Below, in pieces: positions 60,599 to 63,957 of a stretch of 64,000 bases of DNA; position 1 is the stretch's first letter; each line of letters starts with the position of its first letter. The translations under genes were made by a program, and so were the position numbers. The DNA comes from Eledone cirrhosa (Eukaryota). The notes under the pieces were generated by a model that made no database searches, was not told the origin of the DNA, and saw nothing but the letters and a program-made list of their open reading frames with translations. Location: NCBI GenBank assembly GCA_964016885.1, contig OZ024744.1, forward strand, positions 83,886,001 through 83,950,000, written 5' to 3'.

Positions 60599-60718
<120 letters not shown>

Positions 60719-60757
60719 ATATTAAATAAATGGAAACTATATTTATAAAACCATATT

Positions 60758-60823
60758 TATTTCATTATATATATTTCAGGGATATCATATTAACAATATG
60801 TTATGCCTTCCTCAGACAAAATA
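60758..60823 (-). ncRNA. Minimal type I hammerhead ribozyme (left-arm copy)
   Basis: Reverse complement of 60944-61009. Confidence 0.7.
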
Positions 60824-60943
60824 CAATATAGAGAGTTTTATAGGTAAATAGATTTGACATACCGTTCAACATCGACTTTCTCAAATACAAGTCGATGTTG
60901 AACGGTATGTCAAATCTATTTATCTATAAAACTGTCTATATTG

Positions 60944-61009
60944 TATTTTGTCTGAGGAAGGCATAACATATTGTTAATATGATATCCCTGAAATATATAT
61001 AATGAAATA
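60944..61009 (+). ncRNA. Minimal type I hammerhead ribozyme
   Basis: Stem I TATTTTGT/ATGAAATA, core CTGAGGA (60952-60958), long stem II AGG..CATATT/AATATG..CCT, GAAA, palindromic TATATA, then UA cleavage site. Confidence 0.72.
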
Positions 61010-61136
61010 AATATGGTTTTATAAATATAGTTTCCATTTATTTAATATCGTAAATATACTCCAAATACTTGTTGAGTGCTTTTATATCAGTTATAAATAT
61101 TTACTAGTTGTAACCCAACAATTTAAATATAACTTT

Positions 61137-61200
<64 letters not shown>

Positions 61201-61204
<4 letters not shown>

Positions 61205-62308
61205 ATACTTTGGGAGGGTCATGTTGCCAATAAGAAACACACGCACCAGTTGCTTTCACTCAAATTTATTATAAATTTTAAAAAAATTATAAATTTCCGG
61301 TTGGCGGGTTCGTTCCACAATCGGACGGTTGTTCATATATTGTCAAAGTTCTGTCGTCACACATTCTGTGACCTCATTAGTGACCGGGGATTCTTTTCTT
61401 TATTTTGTGCCTCTCCTTTGTTCTGTCCTACGCCATCTTGTTTTTGGGTGTGTTGTGTGCTTAGTTTGCGCATGTGTTACATCCGGGTGTCTGTGTGTGG
61501 TTATATTTGTTTATTTATTTGTTTATTTACATGTTACTGGTTGGTTGTTTGTTCTATGTGTGTGTTTTCATTTTGTCCTTAATTGTAAGTTGTGATGTTG
61601 CTATTCCATCGAATGTTTTCTATTTAATTTTGGTTGGAGTTCATTTATGTTTATTGCCTCTATGATTTGTCTAAACATTGCGTCTTTTCTGTGTGTAGAT
61701 TTTATTTTTATTTCTATGGTCTCTAATTTGCCCTTATGTTCTATTTTAGCATGTTTGTGGAGTACTGACGAGTCTTTTCTATCTTGAAGCTCTCGCCAGT
61801 GTTCATTTAATCGTTCTCCTATACTACGAGCTGTCTTGCCTATGTACATAGGTGTCTTACCTATGTACATATGGACGAAATGAAAACACACACATAGACC
61901 AAACAACCAACTAGTAACATGTAAATAAACAAATAAATAAACAAATAAAAACACACACAGACACCCGGATGTAACACATGCGCAAACTAAGCACGCAACA
62001 CACCCCAAAACAGGATGGCGTAGGACAGAACAAAGGAGAGGCACAAAACAAAGAAAAGTATCCCCGTTCACTGATGTGGTGACAGAATGTGTGACGAAAG
62101 AACTTTGACAATATATGAACAACCGTCCGGTTGTGGAACTAATCAACCAACCGGAAATTTATAAAAAATGTTTAATTTATAATAAATTGGAGTCATAGCT
62201 TGGTGCGTGTGTTTCTTATTGGCAACATGACCCTCCCAAAGTATAACAATATCGGTTTCAACACACGTTTTCAGATAAAGAATCTTGCTAAACAAATTCA
62301 GAAACGAA

Positions 62309-62310
<2 letters not shown>
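61201..62310 (-). mobile_element. 5'-truncated Penelope-like element with inverted pLTRs
   Basis: About 380-bp inverted repeats at 61201-61578 and 61872-62251 flank a GIY-YIG fragment; degenerate hammerheads at about 61341-61386 (-) and 62065-62110 (+); (TA)n flanks. Confidence 0.88.
61601..61870 (-). pseudogene. GIY-YIG endonuclease C-terminal fragment (Penelope)
   Basis: YIGKTARSIGERLNEH...SVLHKH...RQIIEAINI...PKLN. Confidence 0.88.
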
Positions 62311-62372
<62 letters not shown>

Positions 62373-62622
62373 GAGAGGTATAGAGATTGTTTTAGCAAGA
62401 AGCTAACGGCATTCTATAACATATATGCGACTATAACGTCAAGATGGGAAAAGTAGTTAACGAAAGATTTAGGAAAAATAACTCAAACTCATCTCAAAAG
62501 AGAATCAGGATATAAATTCATCCACAGAATTTAGTGAAATCCGGGGAAAAATCTATAGACCTTTAACTCATGATAAAATAAAGTTTGAAACACTTATCCT
62601 TCAATTTGGAATAACATCAAAT

Positions 62623-62703
62623 GCTCTGTATAGTCTTAAAAGACTATTTCATGAAAACTTTCAGTGGAGATGGTCACGGTTGGATTTCATTCATCAGCAG
62701 AGC
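62623..62703 (-). ncRNA. Type I hammerhead ribozyme, copy 1
   Basis: Minus strand: GCTCTG-CTGATGA-ATGAAA(28 nt)TTTCAT-GAAA-TAGTCT ttta AGACTA-TA/CAGAGC; all three stems pair and the core is intact. Confidence 0.92.
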
Positions 62704-63253
62704 TCAACAGAAAACCAGGGCTCTCACAGTAATATAATCCGAAAAAGGGAATTCTAAAACTGGCTAGTTTGCCTTCATGTGTAATTATGAAAAAGTACAA
62801 TGAGGAAAAAACGGGGCTAGTGACGCCAGGATGGAAGTGAATGTTTATTTACAAGAAATAGCAGTCAAATACATTCTGAAAAAAACTCTACAAAAGGAGT
62901 TCATCAAAATAGCAATAATTATCACAGTTTTTATGAAAAAAACCGGGATTAGTCACAGATAGTTTAAGCACTCTAGGAAAAGAATCCGAGTATAAATATA
63001 AATGAGAGGTATAGAGATTGTTTTAGCAAGAAGCTAACGGCATTCTATAACATATATGCGACTATAACGTCAAGATGGGAAAAGTAGTTAACGAAAGATT
63101 TAGGAAAAATAACTCAAACTCATCTCAAAAGAGAATCAGGATATAAATTCATCCACAGAATTTAGTGAAATCCGGGGGAAAATCTATAGACCTTTAACTC
63201 ATGATAAAATAAAGTTTGAAACACTTATCCTTCAATTTGGAATAACATCAAAT

Positions 63254-63334
63254 GCTCTGTATAGTCTTAAAAGACTATTTCATGAAAACTTTCAGTGGAG
63301 ATGGTCACGGTTGGATTTCATTCATCAGCAGAGC
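63254..63334 (-). ncRNA. Type I hammerhead ribozyme, copy 2
   Basis: Identical to 62623-62703, offset by 631 bp. Confidence 0.92.
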
Positions 63335-63668
63335 TCAACAGAAAACCAGGGCTCTCACAGTAATATAATCCGAAAAAGGGAATTCTAAAACTGGCTAGTT
63401 CGCCTTCATGTGTAATTATGAAAAAGTACAATGAGGAAAAAACGGGGCTAGTGACGTCAGGATCGAAGTGAATGTTTATTTACAAGAAATAGCAGTCAAA
63501 TACATTCTGAAAAAAACTCTACAAAAGCAGTTCAGCAAAATAGCAATAATTATCACAGTTTTTATGAAAAAAACCGGGATTAGTCACAGATAGTTTAAGC
63601 ACTCTAGGAAAAGAATCCGAGTATAAATATAAATGAGAGGTATAGAGATTGTTTTAGCAATTGTTTTA

Positions 63669-63731
<63 letters not shown>

Positions 63732-63748
63732 TATACATATATATATAT

Positions 63749-63873
<125 letters not shown>

Positions 63874-63957
63874 GTTATATATATATAACATGTTGACTCC
63901 GGTAACAGCTATTCTCTGTGTTTTCTACATTATATTCTCAGAATATATATATGAGAG

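Follow-up and report, generated by a model that had tools for sequence, protein, structure and literature searches.

Insertion ends of a dispersed hammerhead tandem family in Eledone cirrhosa hint at a circular RNA template

Introduction

Metazoan non-LTR retrozymes are described as elements of ~170-400 nt that make RNA circles (Cervera and de la Pena 2020, PMC7229834). As reported there, they are non-coding head-to-tail repeats with one type I hammerhead per unit and a GC content below 50%, they have no LTR, they coexist with Penelope-like elements (PLEs), and their hammerhead is free to fold in the predicted circle; the family described here resembles them in all these respects. It differs in its 631-nt unit, 7-bp stem III and 28-nt loop II, and whereas circles are shown for the retrozymes of that study, a circle is a prediction for the Eledone unit. 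For the 631-bp family we map where insertions end, where priming occurs and how copies are truncated.

For vertebrates, a preprint from 2026 (Li, Clavereau, Pollet, bioRxiv 10.64898/2026.07.22.740005) gives retrozyme lengths of 51-972 bp. An earlier note on the present DNA had held that described retrozymes are typically shorter; this is true of the 170-400 nt range (PMC7229834), but 631 bp falls within the range of the preprint. Two or more units with complete hammerheads, and the occurrence of monomers, dimers and multimers, are common to the vertebrate retrozymes and the Eledone family. The preprint derives animal retrozymes from PLE pLTRs, reporting that 24 of 57 Xenopus families have counterparts among known elements, for the most part PLE pLTRs, and that only one of nine Xenopus dimers cleaved. 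Unlike those families, the 631-bp unit yielded no homologous pLTR in the loci examined.

Three routes have been proposed for the return of retrozymes to genomes, namely a circle, an uncleaved multimer and local DNA expansion, none of them shown. The literature listings that we searched showed no paper on cephalopod retrozymes, and the word 'ribozyme' has no occurrence in the main text of the Octopus vulgaris repeat paper (PMC13282606).

Here we analyse a locus from Eledone cirrhosa that we assign with confidence, from its sequence features, to the metazoan non-LTR retrozymes, as a hammerhead tandem that would be moved by a Penelope-like reverse transcriptase.

Results

The array in the window

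The window is a stretch of 64,000 nucleotides (contig OZ024744.1, positions 83,886,001 to 83,950,000) from the 3.0 Gb genome of E. cirrhosa. A minus-strand array lies within (TA)n and consists of two 631-bp units, separated by six substitutions and no indel, and a 29-bp partial unit (Table 1); the two near-identical units plus about 30 bp of the earlier note are thus confirmed. Each unit carries three changes of its own on a haplotype common to loci on other contigs, and unit 1 is closer to another locus, L002 (99.5%), than to unit 2 (99.0%), so that assembly error or recent local duplication is rejected. Two further loci, L024 and L098, stop at the same unit position as the partial unit.

Table 1. 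Features of the retrozyme array, in window coordinates.
Feature	Positions	Strand	Remarks
(TA)n target, fixed end	62309..62369	.	
Unit 1	62370..63000	-	631 bp; 3'-most unit (RNA sense); fixed end of the family at 62370
Type I hammerhead 1	62623..62703	-	predicted cut between 62629 and 62628
Predicted monomer from double cleavage	62629..63259	-	631 nt; 33% GC; fold z -2.79 (20 shuffles)
Unit junction	62990..63005	-	fixed end then, inside the RNA, UAUAUUUAUA
Unit 2	63001..63631	-	631 bp; 6 substitutions vs unit 1
Type I hammerhead 2	63254..63334	-	hammerhead 1 +631; predicted cut between 63260 and 63259
5'-truncated partial unit	63632..63660	-	29 bp; putative endpoint of reverse transcription
11-nt duplication of last copied bases	63661..63671	-	5' junction; putative slippage or re-priming
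(TA)n target, truncated end	63671..63887	.	

The longest stop-to-stop frame in the unit is 91 aa, and Pfam gave no match. Pol III A/B boxes, an octamer and a TATA box are all absent from its RNA sense. A palindrome, TGACGTCA, at 62821-62828 and 63452-63459, is broken in unit 1 and intact in unit 2. Of 15 subfamily representatives, 11 carry it; it precedes the hammerhead by ~120 nt and is a possible internal promoter element. Contigs from four sequencing runs of unstated kind span the unit with many variants and are uninformative on expression.

Two fold-back elements lie close to the array. The nearer one (61200-62309), in the same (TA)n cluster, is the remnant of a Neptune-type PLE, whose GIY-YIG end is encoded at 61604-61849 of the minus strand. 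Its arms measure 330 nt and are 91% complementary, only one of them has a tail (~60 nt), and a decayed hammerhead-like core lies near 62070; it has 25,758 candidates genome-wide. The other (60718-61140) has 161-nt arms that are 99% complementary and a minimal hammerhead with its core at 60952 and a palindromic stem III, and has many relatives in the fetched loci.

A dispersed family with older subfamilies

Searching the genome with the unit gave 2104 candidates, 39 of which were scored and yielded 88 matches at 97-100% identity. Exact patterns, whose counts are lower bounds, occur genome-wide at least 919 times for free ends, at least 278 times for unit junctions and at least 1,233 times for a hammerhead 16-mer, with controls at 0. 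We conclude that the family comprises roughly a thousand dispersed copies and that the window copy is young. Copy number, tandem state and end positions across the genome, which the earlier note had named as a check, thus describe a dispersed tandem family with one fixed end, and with 919 exact free ends the sequence is not confined to a single locus.

Older subfamilies at 77-91% identity have the same unit length, the same end and arrays of seven or more units. One old array of ~16 units (L075-L082, C1:82127838-82139080), with units 88-92% alike and several hammerheads broken, ends in an inverted piece. Two loci, L161 and L162, share 99.94% identity across 3.4 kb, but one of them has a unit more than the other, and the array at L092 has a two-unit period; not every array length therefore reflects reverse transcription.

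The hammerhead

In hammerhead 1, stem I is formed by GCUCUG and CAGAGC (62703-62698 and 62628-62623), and the core comprises CUGAUGA (62697-62691), GAAA (62650-62647) and an AUA cleavage site; stem II has 6 bp and a 28-nt loop, and stem III 7 bp. Both copies show the type I features (CUGANGA, GAAA, NUH and three stems, with stem I open), and when the window was searched on both strands with a type I descriptor they were the only two matches, one per unit. The hammerhead is the minimum free energy (MFE) fold both locally, where its stability is not unusual (z only -0.72), and in a circular 631-mer, with stem pairing probabilities of 0.9, 0.66-0.75 and 0.85-1.0. Scan and fold together bear out the claim that each unit carries a complete minus-strand type I hammerhead, with the cut placed as in Table 1.

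The Rfam hammerhead models, suggested earlier as a further check, gave no match to the unit, probably because the long loop II and stem III lie outside them. An Rfam match to a C/D snoRNA (E=1.8) is attributed to chance, since it rests on UGAUGA and the loop CUGA, and inspection showed no flanking K-turn stem.

Across copies, conservation of stem I, core and stem III is 0.90 compared with 0.82 elsewhere in the unit, a difference inflated by selection of the copies with a pattern that holds part of stem I and the core. Stems I and III are nearly invariant, stem II shows one U-A/C-G swap, and length changes in stem III are restricted to its loop. The hammerhead is retained, with its consensus intact, in subfamilies down to 77% identity. 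Pair 10.1-11.1, canonically G-C, varies by subfamily between A-U, U-U and A-C. One subfamily (L063, L067, L074, L090) has one base fewer between CUGAUG and stem II, through either loss of A9 or an extra U before GAAA, and still forms a 7-unit array. Stem III is reported to have usually 1-2 bp in animals, with large stems in fungal and protist PLEs (PMC4209133); at 7 bp, that of the 631-nt unit is unusual for animals.

Insertion ends and targets

One end of the element is fixed. All 88 matches begin at query base 1, which in the RNA sense is a 3' end; it lies at an internal UAUA, downstream of the cut site by 259 nt. A pattern from the middle of the unit selected 17 loci, of which 16 extend to this position. 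Among 19 readable fixed ends (one N-masked end was left out) four extend a few nt into the UAUAUUUAUA tract and none has a 30-40 bp tail; this tract is likely where a primer from nicked (TA)n anneals.

The other, 5', end is randomly truncated, with lengths from 23 to >1,800 nt and a median of 263 nt in a sample of 91 ends taken in order along contig C1, out of 919. Seventeen of these insertions are longer than one unit, and all seventeen continue into another unit. The earlier note had put the genomic ends about 260 nt from the cut site, which holds for the end at 62370 but not for the randomly truncated one. Most 5' ends (72 of 90, one open-ended insertion left out) join TA repeats within 8 nt, and recurrent end positions fall mostly at TA or AT microhomologies. 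Any target-site duplication would be masked by the (TA)n repeat itself. One of the 91 insertions, L158, has an adjoining inverted 5' copy, a structure described for PLEs (PMC8557442). At L171, L180 and L128 the 5' end abuts short terminal fragments of other repeats that target (TA)n, 16 nt (L171) and 33 nt (L180) long, before (TA)n; such junctions could have arisen by twin priming from two RNAs or through a subsequent deletion. In its internal 3' start at a fixed position, its truncated 5' ends, its partial tandems and its microsatellite target, the family is Penelope-like.

Which RNA is copied

On a cleaved linear monomer the enzyme would come to a stop at 259 nt. Stops at the cut site number 1 in 59 passes compared with 1.5 expected in the unbiased set, and 1 in 98 compared with 2.2 expected in a pool of 144 insertions from which four duplicate records had been removed. 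Copying thus passes the cut site freely, which rules out that cleaved linear monomers are simply copied and leaves a circle or an uncleaved multimer as template. The 5' ends are enriched in the 32 nt past a completed unit (10 of 59, 4.2 expected, p=0.008), although in the pooled set ends are more frequent throughout the first 80 nt in general.

Within arrays, with three duplicate records removed, 81 of 88 family-diagnostic calls agree, and four of the seven that disagree fall at CpG positions 28 and 39. Variants private to a locus comprise 14 present in every covering unit and 103 present in some units only, the latter as expected of later mutation. The 14 array-shared variants show no excess of A-to-G changes of the kind left by ADAR editing (3 of 14; A>G against U>C, p=0.36).

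Free passage of the cut site and the concordance within arrays are both in line with a circle, and equally with an uncleaved multimer. Retention of the ribozyme, and the circles made by its relatives, favour the circle over the multimer, and we lean slightly towards copying from a self-cut, re-ligated 631-nt RNA circle. The genomic copies hint at such a template; they do not prove it. The circular permutation of the unit, which the earlier note took to imply a rolling-circle origin, does not discriminate, because Penelope-type internal initiation needs no circle: a Penelope-like protein is reported to initiate internally in vitro on unprocessed linear RNA, its dominant substrate, with ribozyme and cleavage dispensable (PMC11167929).

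The same preference for unprocessed RNA makes it possible, though in our judgement less likely than the circle, that the same element and enzyme use an uncleaved linear multi-unit transcript primed internally, its hammerhead being slow or used elsewhere. Such a transcript would account for the fixed end and the missing cut-site stop, and also for homogeneous arrays if their sources were homogeneous. The 5' ends are weakly over-represented at 381-400 (9 against 3.1) and 421-440 (7 against 2.6) of the unit, though not significantly over 32 windows, and a start site of such a transcript just past TGACGTCA could be the cause. Retention of the hammerhead down to the most divergent subfamilies argues against a multi-unit template, as do, with the caveat on the first 80 nt given above, the ends enriched after a completed unit, as if the enzyme had met its own start. 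Moreover, the repeated junction-plus-flank pairs noticed in an unsystematic look are local duplicates only (L161/L162 and two L198 ends).

Far less probable is the copying of cleaved linear monomers by an enzyme that jumps precisely from 5' end to 3' end without ligation. It would yield the same head-to-tail product and presumably spare the need for a host ligase, but the jumps would have to be near-perfect, the cut site shows no excess of ends and is intact in nearly all hammerheads listed, and intermolecular jumps would mix haplotypes, in conflict with the concordance within arrays.

Search for a parent element and a partner enzyme

Several searches were made for an ORF-bearing relative of the unit. 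A 15-copy profile run against 81 PLE loci, a small sample of >10,000 candidates, matched only the window copy and an unconnected end of 56 nt, and no PLE at these loci shares sequence with the unit. No parent emerged from a neighbour-family GIY-YIG search (150 of 25,758 scored, 30 loci) or from a Pfam GIY-YIG search (150 of 10,596 scored, 30 loci and 20 fetched). Three exclusion patterns gave only more units or short unit ends among the loci examined (30 of 478 matches, 17 of 17 and 30 of 80), and none of the 17 insertions longer than one unit enters an RT/GIY-YIG ORF. Between the unit and the ORFs near L061 and L090 lies (TA)n. The sequence TCTTGCTAAA, common to the ends of the unit and of the neighbouring PLE, was dismissed, as it is not retained in all subfamilies.

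It is consequently very improbable that the unit is the pLTR of an ORF-bearing Penelope element, expanded locally as a minisatellite by unequal crossover on the model of the 2026 preprint: although Xenopus retrozymes match PLE pLTRs (bioRxiv 10.64898/2026.07.22.740005) and unit changes at the DNA level are observed (L161/L162, L092), insertions of more than one unit with separate flanks are impossible by crossover alone, and the ORF-bearing parent that the earlier note had named as a refutation was not found in the loci examined. An ancestral pLTR origin of the unit is nonetheless likely.

Candidate enzymes are at hand. At least six PLE families in the genome have a C-x4-C-x2-C linker before GIY-YIG, a motif assigned to the Neptune and Nematis clades (PMC8557442). 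One of them, L251 (C1:145869500-145877500), is a full-length pLTR-ORF-pLTR Neptune-type PLE with an open frame of 938 aa. At its fixed end TATATAC follows in the body and (TA)n in the genome, the same design as in the unit, and the end of the neighbouring PLE family likewise precedes its own ATAT. Copies of L251 are 95-98% alike, and identities within the L251 and L254/L258 families reach 98%, which would make these families similar in age to the young retrozyme. We consider the L251 and L254/L258 families candidate enzyme sources and, by analogy of end design and target, the partner to be probably a Neptune-type PLE. A further Neptune-type element, L253 (C1:83810500-83819000), has a stop-to-stop frame of 1,096 aa.

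Discussion

The family consists of dispersed, non-coding tandem units with complete type I hammerheads, the sequence features of a retrozyme. The earlier proposal of a non-coding hammerhead tandem using a Penelope-like reverse transcriptase has held up, the family being dispersed, free of an attached ORF and PLE-like in its ends. Our preferred reading, which we consider somewhat probable, is that of a recent non-coding hammerhead tandem retroelement likely inserted into (TA)n by a Neptune-type enzyme, probably from an RNA circle. An array would be transcribed, its two hammerheads freeing a 631-nt monomer that a host ligase would close. The Penelope-like enzyme would nick (TA)n, and the DNA end would serve as primer at the UAUA that lies 259 nt 3' of the cut site. 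Reverse transcription would then continue and fall off at random (median 263 nt, with 17 of 91 copies exceeding one unit), the cDNA end joining the other (TA)n strand via microhomology, and changes at the DNA level would afterwards add units to some arrays or remove them.

Partial tandems, a fixed internal start, AT-rich or (TA)n targets and a hammerhead upstream of the 3' end are shared with the PLEs of the Neptune clade and with the Poseidon element PAc of Anolis (PMC8557442, PMC11167929); the inverted 5' copy, occasional in such PLEs, adjoins one of the 91 insertions sampled here. Unlike these, the 631-bp family has no ORF, and the 30-40 bp tail is absent from the 19 readable ends; its start site, UAUA, is homologous to the target, which is not so for PAc as described (PMC11167929). 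Chlamys MRC1 (PMC8557442) is similar in being a non-autonomous PLE with multicopy head-to-tail insertions; the Chlamys non-autonomous elements of that report share 3' sequence with autonomous families and mostly have no hammerhead. Compared with the emphasis of the 2026 preprint, multimers formed at insertion look as important as local expansion in the 631-bp family.

Both the retrozyme class and its connection with Penelope elements have been published before; what this family adds is a well-mapped insertion anatomy, and it extends retrozymes to a cephalopod genome. With its priming site mapped, (TA)n as its target, a hammerhead fold competent in a single copy and young candidate enzymes in the same genome, it would allow a single in vitro assay to set the three templates side by side.

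More tentatively, the 631-nt RNA may be a long-lived circular hammerhead parasite with no parent element, its subfamilies 23% apart, that exploits Neptune-type enzymes solely through imitation of their ends, nicked (TA)n serving as primer at an internal UAUA. If this is true, the ~1,000 insertions would preserve, like fossils, the traces of target-primed reverse transcription around a rolling circle, with the enzyme pausing each time a turn was completed.
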